Assembly (NCBI GenBank): GCA_039191605.1
Contig: JBCCXL010000017.1
Span: 19,457-83,456, forward strand
DNA from: Acidobacteriota bacterium
GTDB lineage: Bacteria > Acidobacteriota > Thermoanaerobaculia > Multivoradales > JAHZIX01
Length of the DNA: 64,000 nt
Reading direction: 5' to 3'
Below the pieces are notes generated by a model, which did no database searches, was not told where the DNA came from, and saw only the letters and a list, made by a program, of their open reading frames with translations. Of the stretch, positions 570-14,350 are shown in pieces. Both the position numbers and the translations under genes were made by a program. Within the stretch, counting starts at the first letter, position 1, and every line of letters begins with the position of its first letter.

Positions 570-3047
570 TCAGGCGATGGCGGTGAGGTTTTCCTCCACC
601 TGCTCGGCGGGGAGGGGTAGCTTCTCGGCGGCCGTCCCGGCGGGGCTCCAGAGGTCGCTCAAGAAGGCCTCCCAGGTGTGCTCGCGAGCGGTCTTGAGGC
701 CCATGCGGGAGAGCTGACGCCGCAGCTCCTGCTGTCCGGCGATGTCGCGCATCGCCTGGGTCAGTCGGTCGGGGGCGGTGACGTCGACGATCAGGCCGGC
801 GTCGTGGGGAGCGACGATCTCCCGGGGGCCGCCCTCATTGCTGACGATGACCGGGATTCCGGAGGCGCAGGCTTCCAGCACCGCGTTGCCGAAGGTGTCG
901 GTGCGGCTGGGGAAGACGAAGGCGTCGGCGCTGGCGTAGGCGCGGGCCAGCTCTTCGCCCTCCAGGGTGCCGGTGAAGAGGGTGTCCGGCCCGCTGTAGC
1001 GCTCCTTGAGCTCCTCCAGGTAGGGTCCTTCGCCGACGATGGACAGCGTGGCCGCCAGGCCTTCTTCTCGCAGCTGGCGGAAGCTCTCGAAGAGCACGTC
1101 GAGGTTCTTCTCCTTGGAGACTCGTCCGACGTTGAGGAAGCGGAAATGGCGCTCCGGCAGGCCGCGGCTACCCCAGAAGCCGGGCTCTCGGCGGCCCGGG
1201 GCGAAGAGCTCGCGGTCGACGCCGCGGGGCATGATGCGCAGCTCGGTGCCGTCGAAGCCGCGGGCGGCGAGGTCGTCGAGATAGGCCTGGCTGGGCACGT
1301 AGAGCACGTCCATGCCGTTGAAGAACCAGCGCATGAAGGCCCAGGCGCTGCGCTCCAGAGTGGCGCTTCCGGTGAGGTGCCGCACGTAGACCGGGAAGTC
1401 GGTGTGGTAGATCCCGGTGACCCGCAGGTTGAGCAGGCGGGCGGCGAGCAGGCCGGCGACGCCCACCGGACCGGGGGTGCTGAGCACCACCTCGTCGAAG
1501 GCTTTTTCCTCGCAGTGACGCACGATGTCCAGCAGCGGCGGGAAGGCCAGCTGCTGGGAGCGATATTCCGGCAGCTCGAAGGTGTCCACCGGAGTGAAGT
1601 TGAGGTGGTCGAAGCCCTCCAGCTGCTCGCCCTCAAAGCAGGAGATGACCTGCAGCTCGCGACCGGAATGACAAGCCGCGCCGGCGGCGGTGCGCACGGT
1701 GCGGGCGACGCCGTTGATCTCGGTGAGGGTGTCGGTGAACCACGCCTTGCGCTCGCTCTTGTGGCGCATCGGGGCCGCCGCCGGGAAGCGCTCGGCGATC
1801 TGCTGGATGAATTTCTCATCCTTGTGCTGGGTGATGAAGGCGGCGAGATAGGGAGTTGCCGCCAGGGCCGCCGGGGCGAGCTTCGGCAGCGACTCCAGGG
1901 CGGCGAAGAGATTGCCGGAGAGCAGGCTCTCGAGCATTCGCTGGACGGTGCGCTGACCCAGGCGGTGGGAGAGGGTAGCGGCGGAGCGGAAGCTCGCTGG
2001 CGCGGAATCTTCAGTCTCCGGCAGCGCCCGGCGTCCGGCGAGGGTGCGGGAGATCTCCTGCAGATCGCCGCGGCTGAGGATCGAGGTGACGCCGCTGGAG
2101 TGCTCGCCCCCGAGGGCCCCCACCAGGGTGGTACGAGCCAGGGAGATGATGCTCTTGGAAGGCTTGAGGGAATCTGGCACCTCACCGTCCAGCATCATGT
2201 TCAGCAGGTCTTCGAAGCGCTCGCCGCCGGTGCTCTGGGCGGCAGCGGAAGTCTGCTCGCGGCGGCGGCGGTTCCACAGTCGGCCGATGGAGGAGAAGGA
2301 GCGCCCGAGCCTCAGGCTGTCGCCGTGAACGCCGCCGGGCAGGTGGCGGCCGCGGCGCAGGTGGCCGAGGAAATCCTCCACCCGCTCGGCGTCCGGGGTC
2401 TCGGTGTAGGCGGAGGCGATGTAGAGGCCGCTATGGTCATCGCTGCCGCCGGTGAAGTGCTTGATCCACGGCCGCATCATCAGCGGCTCGAGGCCCTGGC
2501 GCTCCGCCATTACCGCGAGGTCTTCTGCGGTGAGGCTTTGGAGGATGGCCTGCACCATGGTGCAGGCCCGGGGGTCGCGGGTTCCGTTGATGCCCTCGAA
2601 GCGGTCGAAGAGCAACAAGAGCTTCTCGAAGTGATCGACGCTAAAGGCGGTATTCACCCGGAAAAGGGCGTGGGCCACCGAGTGGAGGATGCGCTCTTGC
2701 CGCAGGTAGAAGGCCAGCTGGTAGAGGTCGTTGCGCAGGGAGTCGATGATTTTGAACTGCTGCTCGGTGATGCCGATCACCAGCAGGTGGATTTGGGCCT
2801 CGTCCTGGGGAAAGGAGGCGGTGACCTCGCAGGAGATGAAGGTGCCCGGCAGATGGGCGATCTCCAGGGCGCCGTCGATGGTGTCGTGGTCACTGATGGT
2901 GACGAAGTCCATCCCGCGCTCGCGACAGGTGTGGTAGATGTGCTCCGGCTCGGTGAAGCACTCCGGGGATCCCAGCTTCTTGAGGATCCATTCGGTGGGG
3001 TTGTCGGAGTACTTGCTGTGGACGTGGAGATCCGCTCTGGCTGTCAT
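570..3047 (-). CDS. PHP-domain phosphoesterase fused to a family 1/4 (GT-B) glycosyltransferase. The start is trimmed to the internal ATG with an upstream GGAG.
   Basis: The N-terminus reads MTARADLHVHSKYSDNPTEW...DFVTISDHDTIDGALEIAH, a PHP His/Asp metal motif. The C-terminal third reads EACASGIPVIVSNEGGPREIV...GLIVD, the typical GT1/GT4 EX7E region. The longer track ORF (to 3395) adds 116 aa with no support. Confidence 0.75.
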   Translation of the reverse strand: MTARADLHVHSKYSDNPTEWILKKLGSPECFTEPEHIYHTCRERGMDFVTISDHDTIDGALEIAHLPGTFISCEVTASFPQDEAQIHLLVIGITEQQFKIIDSLRNDLYQLAFYLRQERILHSVAHALFRVNTAFSVDHFEKLLLLFDRFEGINGTRDPRACTMVQAILQSLTAEDLAVMAERQGLEPLMMRPWIKHFTGGSDDHSGLYIASAYTETPDAERVEDFLGHLRRGRHLPGGVHGDSLRLGRSFSSIGRLWNRRRREQTSAAAQSTGGERFEDLLNMMLDGEVPDSLKPSKSIISLARTTLVGALGGEHSSGVTSILSRGDLQEISRTLAGRRALPETEDSAPASFRSAATLSHRLGQRTVQRMLESLLSGNLFAALESLPKLAPAALAATPYLAAFITQHKDEKFIQQIAERFPAAAPMRHKSERKAWFTDTLTEINGVARTVRTAAGAACHSGRELQVISCFEGEQLEGFDHLNFTPVDTFELPEYRSQQLAFPPLLDIVRHCEEKAFDEVVLSTPGPVGVAGLLAARLLNLRVTGIYHTDFPVYVRHLTGSATLERSAWAFMRWFFNGMDVLYVPSQAYLDDLAARGFDGTELRIMPRGVDRELFAPGRREPGFWGSRGLPERHFRFLNVGRVSKEKNLDVLFESFRQLREEGLAATLSIVGEGPYLEELKERYSGPDTLFTGTLEGEELARAYASADAFVFPSRTDTFGNAVLEACASGIPVIVSNEGGPREIVAPHDAGLIVDVTAPDRLTQAMRDIAGQQELRRQLSRMGLKTAREHTWEAFLSDLWSPAGTAAEKLPLPAEQVEENLTAIA

Positions 3048-3594
3048 CTTGTGGTGCTCCCGGAGTTCAGCGGCGTGATCGAGTCGCGGCTCATCAGGGG
3101 CAGGAGGGCCGGTACTGAGAGAGGACCGTGCGCTCGAGATCGCTCCCTGCGAGGTGCCCTTGGAAGGGGCCGAAAAGGGGACGACAAAGAAAATGGCGAA
3201 GCCCTCTGCCGAGACTCGAACAAAGCGCTCCCGGGATAGCAGCCTAAGAACGGGAGGTGGAATGACAATGGTCGCCCGGTCACGTAGGGGCGACGAAGTC
3301 GAGCGCTTTTGCCATAGGGATTCCGGGCGTTTGGCCGCACAGTGACAGCGGAATGAACATCCTCCAGGTTCCTGCTGCGGCAAACTCAGCGTCACATCCC
3401 GGAGCTACGGTGATCCTGCACACGCCCTGACTACCGCTGCAATGGAGTGCCGAAACCGATGACCGCTACCGCAGTTTCCCCGTCGCCCTCCGCTTCTGCC
3501 GTCAACGGCTCCCGGTCCGCTGGGGCGTCTGAGGCATCCACCTTCCCTTTCTCGCTATGGCAGCCAAAACAAGACTTCAAGACAAGCATCCCGA

Positions 3595-3671: not shown

Positions 3672-4334
3672 TCAGCCGCTGACGGCGGCGCCCAGACCCA
3701 CCGGGCAGCTCACCCCGGTTCCCCCGATACCGCAATAACCTCCGGGATTCTTCGCCAGGTATTGCTGGTGATAGGCCTCGGCAAAGTAGAGCTTGGGAGC
3801 TTTTAGGATCTCGGTGGTGATCTCGCCGTAGCCGGCGCCCTGCAGCTGCTGCTGATAGAGGTCGCGGCTGGCCTCCGCCGCCTGCTTCTGGGCCTCGGAA
3901 GTGACGTAGATGCCGGAACGGTATTGCGTGCCCTGATCGTTGCCTTGGCGCATGCCTTGGGTGGGATCGTGGCTTTCCCAGAAGCGCTGCAGCAGGCTTT
4001 CGAAGCTGAGGGTCGCCGGATCGAAGACCACCAGCACCACCTCGTTGTGGCCGGTGAGGCCGGAGCACACTTCCTCATAGGTGGGGTTGGGGGTGAGGCC
4101 GGCGGCGTAGCCCACGGCGGTGGTGAACACTCCCTCGGCTTGCCACATCACCCGCTCTGCACCCCAGAAGCAGCCCATGCCGAAGAGCACTCGCTCGGTG
4201 CCTTGGGGATAGGGAGGGGCTAAGGGGGCGTCGAGGACGTGGTGCTTCGCAGGAACCGGGATGGCGGTCTCGCGGCCAGGGAGAGCCTGATTGGCGGTAG
4301 GAAGGACGAGTTTCTTGGGTGAGGTGAAGAACAT
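3672..4334 (-). CDS. msrA: peptide methionine sulfoxide reductase MsrA
   Basis: The GMGCFWG active-site motif is followed by the conserved MsrA core ([38 protein letters not shown]). Confidence 0.92.
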
Positions 4335-4531
4335 GGAAAGCCTCCTGGGGAATGGGGCTGATTGGGTCAGTCTAAGAGGTCAGCTGGATGTGCCCGTCCG
4401 GGGGGGGCGAGACTCGCAGGTTGCTGAGCTCAAGAAAATCGGGGCTGCTGCTGCCGGCCTGAGGCCCCTGGGGTGGGGGCTTCCCTAGGTCGGTGCTTCT
4501 CTGGAGGGTTGTGCTTCCTAAGGATTGTGCG

Positions 4532-4560
4532 TTGACGAGAGTCTGGGGATCGGTACTCTA
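4532..4560 (+). promoter_or_regulatory. candidate sigma70-like promoter (TTGACG-17-TACTCT) in the divergent msrA/CHAT intergenic region
   Basis: A -35 consensus TTGACG sits 17 nt from a weak -10, about 115 bp upstream of the CHAT gene start. This is sequence pattern only. Confidence 0.2.
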
Positions 4561-4672
4561 GGGCAGACCTAGACCTCTTTGTTTTGAGCATGAACGAGAT
4601 CGCTCGATCCATGGTTCATCGGTGGACCACAGGATCCTGGGATCCTGATCTTAGTCGAGGGAGTGTTGTCTT

Positions 4673-7600
4673 ATGTCCCGAGTCTTCCTGCGCACCCACA
4701 GCAGCTCTTTGGTGTGGGAGGTCGAGGGGGAGCATCCCCGCTCTCGCGATCTCACGCAAGAGGATACGCAGAAGCTGCGCCTGTGGATCGCCCGCTATGG
4801 GCGGCTCACGGCGAGACGCCAGGGGCTAGCGATCTCTGGCGCGGCGGCGGTCCAGCAGCTACGGGATCTCGGGCATTCCCTCTACCGCTGGCTCGACGGC
4901 TCCCAGCGCTGGCTGGAGCGGGTGCTGGCGGAGTCGATGGACCTGGATCTGGAGATCGTGGCTTCGGAAGTTCCCGAAGAGCAGGAGCTGCTGCTGCTGG
5001 ATCTTCCCTGGGAGATCCTCGCCCGGGACGGCGCGTTCCTGGCAGAGAATCCGCGGCGGCCCTTCAGCCCGGTGCGCCGGGTCGGTAGGGGAGGAGCGCC
5101 GCGGGCCCCTTCGGAGCATCGGCTGTCGATGGTCTTCATGGCCGCGGCGCCCGAAGGGCACGCGCAGCTGGACTTCGAAATCGAGGAGGCGGCGATTCTC
5201 GAAGCGGCCAGCGGCTTGGGGGCCGACCTGGCGGTGGAGGAGACCGGCAATCTGAGGCAGCTGGAGCTGCTGCTGCTGCGCCGCGGATTGCATCGGCAGT
5301 GCATCGACGTGGTGCATCTCTCCTGTCACGGTCTCGGGGGAGAGGACCCTCACCTGCTGCTGGAGGGAGAAGATGGCGCGGTTCAAAAGGCTTCTCCCCA
5401 GGAGCTTTGCACCAGCCTTCAGCCGGGACAGCTGCGGCTGATCTTCCTCTCTGCCTGCGAGACGGCGATGTCGAGCGCGCGGCCCACCTTGAGCCATGGC
5501 GCTTTTGGGTCGATGATCGCGCCGCTAATCGCCGACGGTGCCCCGGCGGTGCTGGGGTGGGGAGCCTCGGTGAGGGATCAGCAGGCCCTTCGATTCGCTT
5601 CTTGTCTCTATCAGCGGCTCTCCCGTCAGAGCACGCTGGAAGACGCGGTGGAGGACGCCAGGGCGGAGCTGATGGAGCGCTTCGGGGCCGGCAGCGATTG
5701 GCACCTGGCGCGGCTTTTTCTCGGAGCCGAGGGAGGGGGACGCCTCACCGTTGGCACTACCTCCCGGTGGTTGGGGAGGGGGGGCAGCGTAGCCGAGGCG
5801 GAACGATGGTTCGTCGGCCGCCGCCGGGAGATTCAAGAGTCGCTGCGCTACCTGGACCCCGATCGTGCCGACGGCGCTGGCGTTCTGCTCTTTGGCGCGC
5901 CGGGGATCGGCAAGTCCCGCCTCGCCCAGCGCCTCGCCCAGCGACTGGTGGGCAGTGAGCGAATGCGCCATCTATCCCTGAAGGAGGTGCAGGGGGAGGA
6001 GGATCTGCTGGCGAGACTGGCGCGCTTCGGGGGGCTCAATGTCGAAGAGGCGCTGGCGAAGCTGAACCGGCGGGAGCTCCGGCCTTCTTTGGAGCAGCGG
6101 CTGCGCAGCCTGCTGGATACTTTCTTTCATCGCGGAGATCCAGAGGCTAAACCCCTCTTGCTGGAGCTGGATGCCTTGGAGAGCTATTTGGAGCCTCAGG
6201 GTTTCGCGCCGCGGCGGGTGTTGGAGCAGCACGTAGATTGGCTCCACGATCTCATCGCCGCCTTCAGCGCCCACCGCTTGGGCAGTCGTCTGCTCTTGGT
6301 CAGTCGGCTTCAGCCGCAGCTGGAGGTTGGCAGGCGCTGTGTCTCGCAACATCTTCGCTATCTCTCGGTGCCGGCGATGAAGCCCTACGAGAGAGACAAA
6401 CTGACGCGGGCAGCGCTCGCCGCCAGCGGCGAGGATCACTCTCACTTGGCGACGGTGAAGGATTGGCGGCAGCGTTTGAATGCCGCCGCCGGTGGGCATC
6501 CCGGTCTACAGGAACTCTTGCTGCGGGCGCTCCAGGGTGCGCCTGGGGCCGAAGCTCTGGAGACCTTGGAGAGCTACCTGCAGCATCGCGAAGCTCCGCA
6601 ACAAGGTGCTGGAAGCTGGTGGCCCTATCTCGAGCAGATGGGCCTCCAGGAGCTCTACTCTCGGCTCCCTCCTGCGTCTCGTCGCCTGCTGCAGCTCCTC
6701 TCTCTTTCTCCCCTTCCGGTTCCGGCAGGGGAGCTGGTGGCGGCGGTGCGGCATGTGGGGATCTCGAACCCCGAGGAAGCGTCTCGGCCGCTGCTGGGCA
6801 GCGGCTTATTAGAGCGACTCTGGGCTCCCGGCTGGGATGGAGGCAAGGGGGCCGATGCTCTGGAGTGGTCGCCGACCCCTTGGGTGCGTCCGCTGCTGCC
6901 GAAGGCGGATGCCGATCAGGAGCGCCGATTCGCCGAGCAGCTGGGGCATCGTCTCGACCATCGGTGGTCCAATGAGCGCCCCGCATCTCGGGAGCAGAAG
7001 CAGGAGGTGGTGCGCCTCGCCGTTCTCGGGGCGGATCTCGAGCTGCTGAAGCGGCGGGGAGAAGATGAGCTGCTGCAGCTCTATTGGCAGGGGAGTTTCC
7101 GCCGAGCCCGAGATCGAGCGGAGGCGATGATCGCCGCCTTTGAACAGGCGCGACGATCGCCGCCGCCGGGGTTTCGATTGCGGCTCTCGGAAGCCCTCCA
7201 GCGTCTCGGGGAGCCGGTGGAGGCATTGCGTGCCTTCGAGCCTCTGGAGGACTCGCTATCGCGGTACCTGGTAGCAGAAGATCTAGTAGCAGAAGACCTG
7301 ACAGCAGAAGGCCCGTCGGCAGAAGACCGTTCTGCAGAAGCCCTGCCGGAAGCAGCCCGATCGGAAGCAGCTCAACTGGAACAAGCCCAACTGGAACAAG
7401 CTCAACTGGAACAAGCCCAATTGGAACAAGCCCAATTGGAACAAGACAGCGCCGGCGCGGCGCAACAGGAGGGGCTGAGGCCCGCAGATATTCCCAGCCT
7501 GCTGGTACACCTGGGCCGATTGCGCCTGCGGGCCGGTGAGCCCCAGCCTGCCCAGGAGGCCTTCGAGCGTGCGCTGAACGCCTGGGGAGCGCCGCAGGTC

Positions 7601-8482
7601 GAGGATTCCGGAGCTCGCCACGTCATCGAGGGAGAGCTCGGGCAGCTCTACCAAATCTTTGGCTGGTGGGAGCGGGCAGAGAAGATCTTCCGCCAGAAGG
7701 TGCAGGCGGCGAAGAGCAGAAAATACGGCGTCGATGTCGCCGCTGCGGGCCGGGTACAGCTGGGCCGGCTGCGGCTTCAGCGGGGAGACTTCGAGCAGGC
7801 GGAGGAGGAGCTGCTAGAGGCTCTGAGCCTGTTCCAGCGGGCCGGCCGTCGCCGCGATCTCGCGGTGGTGAGCTGGGACCTCGGAACTCTCGAGCTGTGG
7901 CGTGGGCAGGGAGAGCAGGCGCGGCGGCGCTTCGAGGCGGCTGCCCAGCATCTGAGGGAGAGCGATCGATTGGATCTCGCTCGGCTCGGCTGGCGCTGGG
8001 CTCGCTACCATCGACAATTCGGCGCCGCGGGAGAGGCCTTGGCTCAGGCGCAGGCAGCCGCTGAGGAGCTGCGCCGGCTCTACCCGCTGGAGTCCGCCCA
8101 CGCCGAGATCGAGGTCGCGCGCTGTGCCCTGAAGACATCCCGAGGGTCGTTGGGCGAGGAGGCTCTGGAGCGGGCGGAGTCGATCTTTACCTCTCACCGC
8201 GCGGCCCTCGGAGGGCTGGTGGTGCGGACAGTACGCGCGGAGCAGGCATTGCAACGCTCTCTCCGGGCGACCTCGATAGCGGAGCGAGAGATGCTGCTGA
8301 GATCCCAGCTGCTGGATCTAGCAGCTCTTTACGAGGACCTCCAAGAGCTGGGAGCTAGGGCCTATAGTGCTGCGACCCTTCGACTCTCCGCCGCGCTGCA
8401 TGCCGCCCTGGGAGAGCAGGCGAGAGCGCGAGATCTGGAGCAGCAGGCGCGTCAGGCACACCCCTCCCGAGCCGCTCCATAA
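4673..8482 (+). CDS. CHAT-domain (caspase-like peptidase) / P-loop NTPase (STAND-like) / TPR-repeat protein, 1269 aa
   Basis: CHAT His/Cys dyad context: VVHLSCHG and LIFLSACETA. Walker A: LLFGAPGIGKSRLAQRL. The C-terminal half is alpha-helical and TPR-like (EAEKIFRQKVQAA..., LGRLRLQRGDFEQAEE...). It contains an internal pentapeptide repeat block. Confidence 0.8.
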   Translation: MSRVFLRTHSSSLVWEVEGEHPRSRDLTQEDTQKLRLWIARYGRLTARRQGLAISGAAAVQQLRDLGHSLYRWLDGSQRWLERVLAESMDLDLEIVASEVPEEQELLLLDLPWEILARDGAFLAENPRRPFSPVRRVGRGGAPRAPSEHRLSMVFMAAAPEGHAQLDFEIEEAAILEAASGLGADLAVEETGNLRQLELLLLRRGLHRQCIDVVHLSCHGLGGEDPHLLLEGEDGAVQKASPQELCTSLQPGQLRLIFLSACETAMSSARPTLSHGAFGSMIAPLIADGAPAVLGWGASVRDQQALRFASCLYQRLSRQSTLEDAVEDARAELMERFGAGSDWHLARLFLGAEGGGRLTVGTTSRWLGRGGSVAEAERWFVGRRREIQESLRYLDPDRADGAGVLLFGAPGIGKSRLAQRLAQRLVGSERMRHLSLKEVQGEEDLLARLARFGGLNVEEALAKLNRRELRPSLEQRLRSLLDTFFHRGDPEAKPLLLELDALESYLEPQGFAPRRVLEQHVDWLHDLIAAFSAHRLGSRLLLVSRLQPQLEVGRRCVSQHLRYLSVPAMKPYERDKLTRAALAASGEDHSHLATVKDWRQRLNAAAGGHPGLQELLLRALQGAPGAEALETLESYLQHREAPQQGAGSWWPYLEQMGLQELYSRLPPASRRLLQLLSLSPLPVPAGELVAAVRHVGISNPEEASRPLLGSGLLERLWAPGWDGGKGADALEWSPTPWVRPLLPKADADQERRFAEQLGHRLDHRWSNERPASREQKQEVVRLAVLGADLELLKRRGEDELLQLYWQGSFRRARDRAEAMIAAFEQARRSPPPGFRLRLSEALQRLGEPVEALRAFEPLEDSLSRYLVAEDLVAEDLTAEGPSAEDRSAEALPEAARSEAAQLEQAQLEQAQLEQAQLEQAQLEQDSAGAAQQEGLRPADIPSLLVHLGRLRLRAGEPQPAQEAFERALNAWGAPQVEDSGARHVIEGELGQLYQIFGWWERAEKIFRQKVQAAKSRKYGVDVAAAGRVQLGRLRLQRGDFEQAEEELLEALSLFQRAGRRRDLAVVSWDLGTLELWRGQGEQARRRFEAAAQHLRESDRLDLARLGWRWARYHRQFGAAGEALAQAQAAAEELRRLYPLESAHAEIEVARCALKTSRGSLGEEALERAESIFTSHRAALGGLVVRTVRAEQALQRSLRATSIAEREMLLRSQLLDLAALYEDLQELGARAYSAATLRLSAALHAALGEQARARDLEQQARQAHPSRAAP
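7268..7447 (+). repeat. 15-bp tandem repeats within the CHAT gene, encoding pentapeptide repeats
   Basis: The block (VAEDL/TAEGP/SAEDR)x5 is followed by (LEQAQ)x5. The DNA reads gcagaagacctgaca... and caactggaacaagcc... Confidence 0.8.
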
Positions 8483-8590
8483 GGGGCGCAAGGGAGAGGT
8501 CCATATTGTCTGTTGGTCGGGTTCGTAGGCTGAGTTCTTCGCTGGGGCTCTTCGTTCAGAGCGCGGCGACGGAGCTCGGCAGGAAGAAAC

Positions 8591-9061
8591 TCATTTGGTC
8601 GCGGTGAAGGCGACGGCAGAGCTGAGGTTGGGAGGGTGCGGCGTGGCGAGAGGCGGAGGCGACTGGTCCGCTGGCCGCTGTAGTCGAATGAGGTGGAACC
8701 AGGCCAAGAAGGCGTCGAGCATGCGGAGAAAGACTTCGGCCTCTTCAGCGGATACCTGCTCGATTCCGAGGGCAGCGAGAACCTCACTCTGGGGCTTGCG
8801 CTTGCCTTCACCGATGGCCGAAAGATCTCGTGTCGCGCGGCCGTTGACCTCTTCCAGGGCGTTCAGCAGATCGAAGCGATCGGCTCCCATGGCGTCGAGG
8901 ATTTGGCCCACCGTCTCGAAGGTCGGCAGGGTCTTTTCGGTTTCATAGGCGCTGACCAGCGCCTTGGTCTTTCCGGCTCGTTCGGCTACGTCCTTTTGTA
9001 ACAAGTTGCGTTCGGTGCGAAGGTAGCGCAGGGCTCTGCCCAGGCCGTCGAATTCACCCAT
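8591..9061 (-). CDS. XRE-family helix-turn-helix transcriptional regulator
   Basis: The N-terminal LRYLRTERNLLQKDVAERAGKTKALVSAYETEKTLPTFETVGQIL is a classic HTH_XRE. Confidence 0.75.
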   Translation of the reverse strand: MGEFDGLGRALRYLRTERNLLQKDVAERAGKTKALVSAYETEKTLPTFETVGQILDAMGADRFDLLNALEEVNGRATRDLSAIGEGKRKPQSEVLAALGIEQVSAEEAEVFLRMLDAFLAWFHLIRLQRPADQSPPPLATPHPPNLSSAVAFTATK

Positions 9062-9234
9062 GAGTCAGGATCCGATAGTAGAGGAACGTGGGAGGGGGGA
9101 GCACTCATTGCGAATGACCATCAGATTGGATCGCTACCGATTAGCCGTAATTGACTTATGGCAGGCGTAGATTTTCTGTCCTGGAAAGTATACCGGATTT
9201 TGATTCGTCTGGCATTGAATCCTAAGAAGCAAAT

Positions 9235-9923: not shown

Positions 9924-10409
9924 TCACGGCTGGCGGCAGAGCTGACTCAGCCCGTTGGCGGTAAAGAAGAGCAGCAGGCCGCCGCGCAGGCTCCAAGCTA
10001 CGGTACGAATCCAGTTGCTCGCCACCAGGCTTGCGTGGACAGCGGGATCAAAACCGGCGGCGAGACGCCCGTGAAGGGGGATCTGGATCAGGGCGGTGGA
10101 GAGCCAGATGACGGCCAGCAGCGCGATTCCGGCGAGCACCGCGGCGCGGGGCAGGAAGGGGGGGCGAGCGACTAGCAGCAGGCCTGCGGTGATCAGCTCC
10201 AGGAGCATCGCCGGGGCGACGATGGTGGTGATGCGCATCGCGTGGAGGCGCTCGTATTCCGCGAATCCGGCGGCGCCGACGGAGCCGAAGAGAGGGTAGT
10301 GAACCACCTGGATGGTCCAGATCAGGCCCACCAGGAAGAGAGTCGAACCCAGATGGAGCACGAAGGTGGCGTTGGCCAGAGTGTCCGGTGTGGGGGCGGA
10401 GGCGTTCAT
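9924..10409 (-). CDS. small multi-pass membrane protein (about 4 TM helices)
   Basis: Four hydrophobic helices are present. The start is trimmed to MNASAP so the gene does not overlap ligA. Confidence 0.5.
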   Translation of the reverse strand: MNASAPTPDTLANATFVLHLGSTLFLVGLIWTIQVVHYPLFGSVGAAGFAEYERLHAMRITTIVAPAMLLELITAGLLLVARPPFLPRAAVLAGIALLAVIWLSTALIQIPLHGRLAAGFDPAVHASLVASNWIRTVAWSLRGGLLLFFTANGLSQLCRQP

Positions 10410-10425
10410 GTGTCGGGCAATCCCG

Positions 10426-13403
<2,978 letters not shown>

Positions 13404-13441
13404 GTGGGCATCATCGCGGGGTGTGGTTCTCGGTTCGGGGC

Positions 13442-14350
13442 TCAGGCTGCGCTCGGCTGAGCGGAAGAGACGTCAGCGAGAGTCTTGCCGCGAGCCTTTT
13501 CGATGCGCTGGCTACGCTTCTGGAATTGGCCGATGGCGTATTCCGTGAACTGCTCTAGCTCGAGGCCGAAGGGCAGGGTGTCGTAGGCGGCGAAGAGCTC
13601 CTGGATCAGCAGGATGGCGGGGCCCAGCAGCTCCGCCAAGCGCTCTTCGATGGCTCGCCACACGCCGTCCCCGTGCTCCGCCACCAGGCGAGAGAGGAGG
13701 TAGACGCCGTAGGCCATATGACGGCTCTCGTCCCGCTGGAGATGGCGGACCGCCTGCTGCATGCCCGGCAGGATGCCGTTGCGCTCCAGCATGTGGCGGT
13801 AGGCGTGGTAGCCGGTCTCCGCCAGCACCCCCTCGACGATCATGTTGTAGGTCACCGAGGCGCGGGCCTGGGCCTCGGGAGAGGCGTCCTGTCGCAGCTG
13901 GGCGAGGGCGGTGGGCAGCTCCTGCTCGAAGATGATGCTGTAGCTGGGGGTGAAATAGCCGGAGAGGTCCCCCTGGTATTGGGTCACCTCCCGCAGGAAG
14001 CGATCGAAGAGCTCTACGTGCTTGGCTTCTTCCCACAGGAAGGAGGTGAGGTACATCTCTTCTTCCAGCCGTCCCTCGGAGGCGATCACGCCGATCAGCG
14101 GCAGCAGATCCACGGTGACGCTCTCCTCGCCGGCCTGGAAGAGAGTCGAGAGGCGCAGCAGCACGTCGCGCTCCAGCTCGTTGAGCTTCTCCCAATCCCG
14201 GCGATCCTGCTCGAAATCGATGTCCTGAGGATTCCAGATCCCGTGAGCCTTGGCCTTGGCCCAGAGTCGCATCGGGAAGGTTCCGTGGTCGAGGCCGCGG
14301 CGCGTGGTGTGCAGGCGGGGAGGCGTAGGGGACGTAGTCATGGGCGGCAC
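13442..14350 (-). CDS. R2-like ligand-binding oxidase / ferritin-like diiron-carboxylate protein (ribonucleotide reductase R2 fold)
   Basis: EEAKHVELF and DESRHMAYG carry the paired E..H motifs of the RNR-R2 / R2lox family. Confidence 0.65.
   Translation of the reverse strand: MPPMTTSPTPPRLHTTRRGLDHGTFPMRLWAKAKAHGIWNPQDIDFEQDRRDWEKLNELERDVLLRLSTLFQAGEESVTVDLLPLIGVIASEGRLEEEMYLTSFLWEEAKHVELFDRFLREVTQYQGDLSGYFTPSYSIIFEQELPTALAQLRQDASPEAQARASVTYNMIVEGVLAETGYHAYRHMLERNGILPGMQQAVRHLQRDESRHMAYGVYLLSRLVAEHGDGVWRAIEERLAELLGPAILLIQELFAAYDTLPFGLELEQFTEYAIGQFQKRSQRIEKARGKTLADVSSAQPSAA

Follow-up and report, generated by a model that had tools for sequence, protein, structure and literature searches.

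The stretch analysed here (hereafter the window) comprises 64,000 nucleotides of contig JBCCXL010000017.1 of an Acidobacteriota bacterium (assembly GCA_039191605.1, positions 19,457 to 83,456) and contains, near its left end, a gene encoding a 1269-residue protein in which a caspase-like protease domain of the CHAT type is followed by a STAND-type nucleoside triphosphatase (NTPase) and a C-terminal TPR region. The three domains and their order are assigned firmly, since profile searches, high-confidence AlphaFold models and fold searches agree on them. The identical protein in NCBI (P0001) is named 'MAG: AAA family ATPase [Acidobacteriota bacterium]', because PF13191 is the sole domain in its precomputed public annotation. 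The reading frame belongs to a real gene and is not a shadow of high G+C content, given the G+C pattern of its three codon positions (0.77/0.48/0.74) and its more than 400 homologues; a Shine-Dalgarno-like GGGAG lies 8 nt 5' of the ATG. Long spurious open reading frames are common in the window, whose G+C content is about 65%, an example being an 853-aa shadow frame opposite the gene at 570-3395. An earlier first-pass annotation of the same DNA had reported the 1269-aa frame together with the motifs VVHLSCHG and LIFLSACETA and a Walker A motif, all of which are present as it stated. The gene and its features are the following:

4673..8482, plus strand: CHAT protease - STAND NTPase - TPR gene, 1269 aa, ATG start (open reading frame, translation and public gene call)
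4673..5797, plus strand: N-terminal caspase-like (CHAT) region, residues 1-375 (PF12770, AlphaFold2 model, Foldseek)
4991-5677, plus strand: Pfam CHAT match, residues 107-335 (PF12770)
5327..5329, plus strand: predicted catalytic His219 codon, in VVHLSCHG, residues 213-220 (motif position and family alignment)
5456..5458, plus strand: predicted catalytic Cys262 codon, in LIFLSACETA, residues 256-265 (motif position and family alignment)
5798..6892, plus strand: predicted STAND-type nucleotide-binding oligomerisation domain (NOD), consisting of nucleotide-binding domain (NBD), helical domain and winged helix, about residues 376-740 (fold search)
5894..5917, plus strand: Walker A / P-loop GAPGIGKS, residues 408-415 (G413, K414 and S415 invariant in the family)
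6155..6181, plus strand: Walker B region LLLELDALE, residues 495-503 (D500 and E503 kept; residue 501 is Ala)
6950..8479, plus strand: helical-repeat (TPR) putative sensor, residues about 760-1269 (TPR_12, TPR_8)
7273..7445, plus strand: in-frame 15-bp tandem repeats in the sensor, (A/S)AEDL-like units followed by five QLEQA units (Tandem Repeats Finder)

The CHAT assignment was obtained by scanning residues 1-370 alone, in which PF12770 matched residues 107-335 with 65.9 bits against a cut-off of 24 (E 5.5e-18). The full-length Pfam scan of the 1269-aa protein did not report CHAT, and this omission is a filter artefact. Long multidomain proteins with biased composition can drop true domain matches in whole-protein scans. 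AlphaFold2 models were built from 60-sequence alignments in two pieces, residues 1-375 and residues 376-800, and that of the CHAT region reached a predicted local distance difference test (pLDDT) of 92.2 and a predicted template modelling score (pTM) of 0.92. With this model, the top Foldseek match was Csx29/TPR-CHAT of Craspase (8eey_B, E 4.4e-10), accompanied by the CHAT-containing anti-sigma factor DdvA, SAVED-CHAT and separase, and followed in the next tier by gingipain, caspases and MALT1; as modelled, the protease region has the caspase-hemoglobinase fold. The motifs of the His-Cys dyad, H219-G220 and S260-A261-C262, are both intact, and in the 44- and 60-member family alignments C262 and G220 are invariant, while the H219 column holds His in at least 90% of members. 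Further conserved positions of the region are P112, W113, E114, R135 and R136, invariant in the 44-member alignment and with at least 90% conservation in the 60-member one, as well as R330 and R347, invariant in both; all of them are kept in the window protein, those of residues 107-138 being encoded at 4991-5085. By analogy with caspases, the conserved arginines of the CHAT region could form a pocket for an acidic (Asp) P1 residue.

Within the NTPase, AAA_16 (E 9.5e-11), a generic model, was alone above the Pfam threshold, and NB-ARC gave no match; a search of the PDB with the single sequence returned P-loop matches to ClpC and ClpB only. The AlphaFold2 model of residues 376-800 (pLDDT 90.1, pTM 0.90) gave a different picture in Foldseek, the best matches being CED-4 (E 1.5e-9) and the plant NLR resistosomes ZAR1, Sr35 and NRC4, plus Dark and MalT. 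Those to CED-4 and the plant NLR NB-ARC modules span 300-315 residues, including the helical and winged-helix domains, and rank ahead of ORC/Cdc6 and classical AAA+ proteins. Because the fold matches are CED-4, plant NLRs, Dark and MalT, the modelled NTPase is assigned as a STAND NOD (NBD-helical-winged helix), although no STAND-specific Pfam model passes; some relatives carry matches to nSTAND1 (PF20703) or NACHT (PF05729). The Walker B region of the window protein has Ala at residue 501, where 93% of relatives have Asp, this being the second acidic position of the motif. In STAND and NLR proteins, what this second acidic residue promotes is hydrolysis, not binding. Judging from the sequence, the window protein is likely to bind ATP, while its capacity for hydrolysis is uncertain, and the D501A change may slow resetting rather than abolish switching.

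As regards the C-terminal part, the full-length Pfam scan contained weak TPR matches only, whereas the same part scanned alone matched TPR_12 with 38.9 bits (cut-off 30.1) and TPR_8 with 28.3 bits (cut-off 25.7), and a family profile searched against the PDB matched TPR structures, e.g. LGN/GPSM2, KLC and AfsR. The TPR sensor of the window protein is strongly divergent from those of its relatives and contains peptide repeats at residues 901-920; at the DNA level, Tandem Repeats Finder reported a period of 15 with 5.1 copies and 93% matches at 7369-7445, preceded by degenerate AEDL-like units. This 15-bp repeat tract is a low-complexity insertion. The tract at 7273-7445 is also a possible site of length variation. 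Overall, the order of CHAT, STAND NTPase and TPR given by the first-pass annotation is upheld by Pfam, AlphaFold2 models and fold searches alike, with the dyad intact and conserved; the NTPase has a STAND fold and the CHAT catalytic residues are present. The NLR-like layout that it saw, with an effector placed on a STAND scaffold, likewise holds, a signal-activated protease being the most reasonable reading.

The protein belongs to a large and widespread family. A word-index search yielded at least 420 homologues, and among the matches listed the closest had a full-length identity of 31% and nearly all carried PF12770, PF13191 and TPR. An HMMER search with residues 1-756 against 50%-identity representatives retrieved 5349 sequences at E<=1e-3 and 547 at E<=1e-30, the latter matching CHAT and NTPase collinearly; at 50% identity the window protein itself is a singleton. 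Species-representative genomes contain at least 346 relatives, distributed over Desulfobacterota, Myxococcota, Planctomycetota, Acidobacteriota, Actinomycetota, Alphaproteobacteria, Gammaproteobacteria, Cyanobacteria and others; genomes of Actinoplanes and Streptomyces have several paralogues each. C262, G220, G413, K414, S415, D500, E503 and R545 are invariant in both the 44- and the 60-sequence alignments. In the neighbour-joining tree the window protein is placed on a deep, long branch.

Open reading frames were called in 83 related loci, and everything located within 5 kb of the main gene was clustered. The standout cluster consists of a protein of about 125-135 aa encoded on the same strand, directly upstream or downstream of the main gene and often overlapping it by 4 bp. 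Its hidden Markov model (HMM) matches 36 of the 83 loci, and of the 55 loci with 600 bp or more on each side of the main gene, about 29-32 have it as an adjacent gene; examples from its alignment (A4) are L039:13315-13689, L058:13591-13989, L003:5130-5606 and L019:9570-10004. The aligned proteins have an N-terminal beta-alpha element, a variable linker, a near-invariant Asp (usually Asp-Pro) located near residue 50 with a subsequent hydrophobic helix containing an invariant Pro, and then a basic stretch that precedes a beta-rich C-terminal part. This partner had no match in Pfam, NCBIfam, PADLOC or the PDB, is recorded as 'hypothetical protein' in RefSeq and UniProt, and retrieved unannotated relatives only in a profile search of 5.8 billion proteins. 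The nearest relatives of the window gene by distance mostly carry it. Whole clades, those of Actinoplanes and Magnetococcales, are without it, and partner-less members can therefore be stable.

The remaining neighbour clusters consisted of TPR pieces from split genes, of two-component genes, which are common, and of shadow frames on the strand opposite the partner. The three relative contexts for which annotation was available all differ from one another and contain a HicAB pair, transposases, a second Peptidase_C14 and a Schlafen/AlbA_2 gene, none of them having an XRE gene. In an actinobacterial locus (L074:9923-19380), two tandem CHAT-STAND paralogues occur together with two copies of the partner, one of which is frameshifted. 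At L002:13474-16735, a partner-less member, P0007, is followed on the same strand by genes for a 425-aa protein without a Pfam match and a 660-aa Peptidase_C14 (caspase) + Y4kD_C protein, a pair that may represent an alternative downstream module.

The layout of the window protein recalls several known systems. Like HetF-type cyanobacterial proteins, it possesses a CHAT protease domain. In HetF, CHAT is C-terminal and a STAND NTPase is lacking, the opposite of the layout seen here. Csx29, SAVED-CHAT and DdvA, the closest solved structures (Foldseek E 4e-10 to 1e-8), are CHAT-type caspase-like proteases under sensor control. In Csx29, however, TPR is N-terminal to CHAT and activation occurs through gRAMP/RNA, unlike the CHAT-NTPase-TPR order of the window protein, and no Cas-like product was present among the open reading frames scanned within about 20 kb; SAVED-CHAT is activated by cyclic oligoadenylate, whereas no CARF/SAVED components lie near the window gene. 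With the Apaf-1/CED-4 apoptosome and the plant NLR resistosomes, the protein shares the structure of nucleotide-binding, helical and winged-helix domains (NBD-HD1-WHD) and, by its design, the logic in which oligomerisation activates a caspase-type protease, although the sequence identity to these NTPases is only 13-17%, the protease is fused in cis rather than recruited via CARD, and the sensor is TPR instead of WD40 or LRR. The combination of an N-terminal effector, a STAND NOD and a C-terminal TPR-like sensor is also that of Avs and other bacterial NLR-like proteins (Gao et al. 2020, 2022; Lee et al. 2026), from which the window protein differs by having no PADLOC 2.0 Avs match and by lying outside any defence island.

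The most relevant precedent is the EACC1-caspase system. Kaur et al. 2020 (eLife; PMC7159879, section 33; 'System 4') describe a two-gene system in which the product of EACC1, the 5' gene, is small and has one conserved hydrophobic helix flanked by short alpha+beta extensions, and the other gene encodes an N-terminal caspase-superfamily peptidase with up to 50 alternative C-terminal modules, among them STAND NTPases and superstructure-forming repeats; according to these authors, the system is enriched in bacteria of multicellular habit. In a 2025 preprint, Evans et al. (PMC12642450) reconstituted such a system from Ktedonobacter racemifer, in which the gene beside EACC1 encodes Avs12 joined to a caspase-like protease: toxicity sets in when a phage tail connector protein is present and requires both EACC1 and the catalytic Cys, EACC1 is cut at Asp49 into fragments of 5.7 and 7.1 kDa, and the C-terminal fragment permeabilises liposomes. 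The same authors noted fusions of EACC1-proteases to DnaK-like chaperones, and the CHAT/caspase-STAND-repeat architecture is noted as well in Lee et al. 2026 (PMC13581612). The statement of the first-pass annotation that it was aware of no characterised family with this domain order thus does not stand, the order having been described in 2020, reconstituted in 2025 and noted in 2026 in these three works. The window protein resembles the EACC1-caspase system in its N-terminal caspase-superfamily peptidase, STAND NTPase and superstructure-forming repeats, its family is similarly spread over actinobacteria, proteobacteria and other bacteria of complex lifestyle, and about half of the relatives' loci have a neighbour of about 130 aa fitting the EACC1 description, with its Asp near residue 50 in agreement with the reported Asp49 cleavage site. 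On the other hand, the window is without an EACC1-like gene, and the relatives' partner is found downstream as often as upstream, unlike the 5' position given for EACC1 by Kaur et al. Compared by description, the catalytic Cys of KrAvs12 is residue 152 and that of the window protein residue 262, which indicates a longer N-terminal extension in the latter.

The surroundings of the gene contain three further features that bear on its interpretation:

8591..9061, minus strand: XRE-family helix-turn-helix gene, 156 aa, convergent with the CHAT gene (HTH_3 E 5e-11)
9062..9234, minus strand: XRE upstream region, 173 bp, with one sigma-70-like promoter match (9215-9187) and one CAGGATCC copy (9066-9073)
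4335..4672, no strand: divergent msrA/CHAT intergenic region, with tandem palindromic CAGGATCC/GGATCCTG units at 4630-4647

The stop codons of the CHAT and XRE genes are separated by 108 bp. The match of the XRE gene to the PADLOC capH model (E 1.9e-8) extends across the greater part of the profile, and no CapP-type metallopeptidase was found adjacent to it. XRE-like neighbours within 5 kb occur in 2 of the 83 related loci. The module of CHAT and XRE genes put forward in the first-pass annotation is not supported, given this rarity, the convergent orientation and the separate upstream region of the XRE gene, which is a neighbour whose functional link to the CHAT gene is not established. The CAGGATCC/GGATCCTG core is present in two tandem copies 26-43 bp upstream of the CHAT ATG and in one copy beside the XRE start, and four of the nine strand-specific CAGGATCC matches of the window fall within the 511 bp of the two upstream regions. 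This sharing was found post hoc by comparing all k-mers of both regions and was not significant, since chance alone would give the two regions about 1.7 8-mers and 0.4 9-mers in common; neither was the extended 12-mer palindrome enriched. The palindrome looks operator-like and is a lead, not evidence.

The divergently oriented msrA gene (3672-4334, PMSR E 1e-59) is the direct upstream neighbour of the CHAT gene, as the first-pass annotation had it; ligA (10426-12609), named there as the other flank, is not adjacent, two genes lying between it and the XRE gene, one for a 190-aa putative lipoprotein and one for a 161-aa membrane protein, all on the minus strand. Its description of the locus as an isolated insertion finds no support either, given the non-adjacency of ligA, a best ligA identity of 64% and a G+C content at third codon positions (GC3) that is only mildly atypical. 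The GC3 values are 0.74 for the CHAT gene and 0.72 for the XRE gene, with 0.80-0.88 in the flanking genes and a window mean of 0.775 (standard deviation 0.078). Both values deviate from the mean of the genes in the window by no more than about one standard deviation, too weak a signal for horizontal transfer to be called from composition. The closest database ligA sequences are 60-64% identical, so that the genome has no near relative for comparison. The best comparator, L085, shares the genes for the ribonucleotide reductase small subunit, the acyltransferase, ligA and the 161-aa membrane protein at 55-70% amino acid identity (window 9924-14350 corresponding to L085:8138-12486); synteny stops right after the membrane protein, and L085 is without counterparts of the lipoprotein, XRE, CHAT and msrA genes. 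A second comparator, L086, shares ligA only. The CHAT and XRE genes therefore lie past the synteny break, which says little at such an evolutionary distance. Separated from the CHAT gene by msrA alone, the gene at 570-3395 (minus strand) encodes a 941-aa protein whose N-terminal part is PHP-type-phosphoesterase-like by eye, with no Pfam match there, and is fused to a family 4 glycosyltransferase; this protein has strong GT1/GT4 matches and also matches Pfam 'GT4-conflict' (PF20706) with 39.3 bits against a cut-off of 26.

Taking this together, we consider it fairly probable that the window protein represents a divergent member, lacking the partner, of a widespread CHAT-STAND-TPR family, whose relatives act as the protease and sensor of the EACC1-caspase conflict system and follow an Avs/NLR-like design. 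By analogy with these systems, it would most likely be a ligand-activated protease switch. At rest, the TPR region and the nucleotide-bound NOD would keep the protein monomeric and the protease inactive. A ligand, by the Avs precedent most likely a foreign (phage) protein or else another conflict or stress signal, would bind the TPR sensor; nucleotide exchange would then lead to oligomerisation of the NOD, as the STAND fold suggests, and the N-terminal CHAT domains would be juxtaposed so that the His219/Cys262 dyad becomes active, for which caspases and KrAvs12 offer the model. The active protease would cut a substrate, with cell death or growth arrest as the outcome. The probable substrate in about half of the related loci is the EACC1-like protein of about 130 aa encoded next to the protease; it would be cut at the near-invariant Asp preceding the helix, freeing a membrane-active fragment. 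The window has no EACC1-like gene, and the substrate of its protease would therefore be encoded elsewhere or be a host protein.

A number of observations weigh against this interpretation. The partner HMM had no match in the six-frame translation of the whole window, and the intergenic DNA flanking the CHAT gene showed no partner remnant; the relatives' small protein is a candidate EACC1, matched by description only, through its size, helix, Asp and adjacency. Among STAND-specific Pfam models, NACHT reached 17-21 bits against a threshold of 26.7, and nSTAND3 and nSTAND6 were also sub-threshold. The neighbourhood is one of housekeeping genes, including those for the PHP-glycosyltransferase fusion, msrA, ligA, the acyltransferase and the ribonucleotide reductase small subunit, as well as a 2-oxoacid:ferredoxin oxidoreductase, a glucan phosphorylase and an M32 carboxypeptidase. 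The Avs and bNACHT profiles of PADLOC-DB 2.0, which do not cover Avs6-24, had no match; the only PADLOC matches of the 1269-aa protein, to mad8 (E 1.4e-4) and IetA, both fall on the P-loop stretch, and PADLOC and NCBIfam gave no defence-system assignment for the locus. The defence role suggested in the first-pass annotation on the strength of Avs and bNACHT thus receives no backing from PADLOC or from the surrounding genes. Defence-gene enrichment around the family loci was likewise absent, the 124 proximal and 116 distal genes giving single-member PADLOC matches only; the proximal ones were mostly due to one Ser/Thr kinase matching many PD-T4-6 models, plus a sigma-54 activator, and the distal ones include one type I restriction enzyme. 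No relative was encoded in phage records, and carriage on plasmids is rare, five large plasmids being matched over the CHAT part only. Finally, no other of the 44 aligned members is as divergent as the window protein. Among the 185 columns in which the other members show at least 85% conservation, it deviates at 38, 21 of which fall in the TPR region, compared with a median of 10 and a next highest value of 30. Its deviations in the NTPase include D501A, T543V and N609H, the latter two at positions that do not vary among the 43 other sequences. With the highest deviation count and these three substitutions, the protein could be functionally altered or decaying.

This last point leads to the alternative of an orphaned remnant, which would have lost its EACC1-like pro-toxin and be decaying under relaxed selection, its signalling gone while the frame is still open. 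The deviation count, the loss of the second Walker B acidic residue, the two changes at otherwise invariant positions, the low-complexity insertion in the sensor and the missing partner, which the nearest relatives mostly carry, all speak for it. We nevertheless regard it as unlikely, given that the 3.8-kb frame is intact, that the protein retains the catalytic dyad, the Walker A Lys, the first Walker B Asp, E503 and R545, that both domain models have pLDDT values of at least 90 and the CHAT region is 36-51% identical to relatives, and that whole clades in Actinoplanes and Magnetococcales do without the partner, a condition that can thus be stable. A signal-activated protease with a role outside defence, in development, stress-induced cell death or kin discrimination, appears comparably unlikely. 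It would agree with the lack of known defence genes beside family members, with the housekeeping context and with the concentration of the family in bacteria of complex lifestyle (Streptomyces, Actinoplanes, Myxococcota, Desulfobacterales, cyanobacteria, Azospirillum), as several paralogues per genome; Kaur et al. tie the EACC1 system to multicellular habit (PMC7159879), and the DnaK-like chaperone fusions in Evans et al. suggest stress roles (PMC12642450). Still, the sole relative of this design that has been reconstituted, caspase-Avs12 with EACC1, is triggered by a phage structural protein (PMC12642450), and most TPR-STAND sensors examined to date bind phage proteins.

A two-gene module in which the XRE protein represses the CHAT gene, or in which the protease cuts a CapH-like XRE repressor in the manner of CapP-CapH or Craspase-Csx30, would account for the immediate adjacency of the two genes, the capH model match of E 1.9e-8, the CAGGATCC core upstream of both and their GC3 slightly below that of the neighbours. 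We hold it to be very unlikely: convergent genes are not co-transcribed, XRE-like neighbours are seen in only 2 of the 83 related loci, XRE helix-turn-helix genes are very common, a CapP-like peptidase is lacking, and the shared motif was noticed post hoc and is not significant. A more far-reaching version, and a highly improbable one, has the protease of this lineage rewired, away from the release of an EACC1-like pore-former, towards the CapH-like XRE repressor, in a proteolysis-gated switch with GGATCC palindromes as operators, or towards essential host proteins, D501A making it a hydrolysis-deficient, one-shot switch. As for the NTPase being a generic AAA+/P-loop module, with the NLR analogy wrong, we give this next to no credence. 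AAA_16 is indeed the one Pfam model that passes while NACHT, nSTAND3 and nSTAND6 do not, and the sequence matches in the PDB are the P-loops of ClpC and ClpB; these are outweighed by fold matches over 300-315 residues to CED-4 and plant NLR NB-ARC modules that outrank ORC/Cdc6 and classical AAA+ proteins, by the nSTAND1 (PF20703) or NACHT matches of relatives, and by the layout of N-terminal effector and C-terminal TPR.

The architecture itself is already known, and the window protein is an unusually divergent, partner-less member of it; the family-level points, namely the unannotated partner and the partner-less clades, are more useful than the single gene. The partner of about 130 aa present in roughly half of the related loci is probably a protease-released pore-former, not covered by Pfam, NCBIfam or PADLOC models, while the partner-less clades, together with the window gene, raise the question of the cleavage target, and with it that of direct killing, action in trans or signalling. 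A protein publicly named 'AAA family ATPase' turns out to be a caspase-like protease on an NLR-type switch, as modelled, and adds an Acidobacteriota example to a family that links bacterial conflict systems with the logic of the eukaryotic apoptosome.

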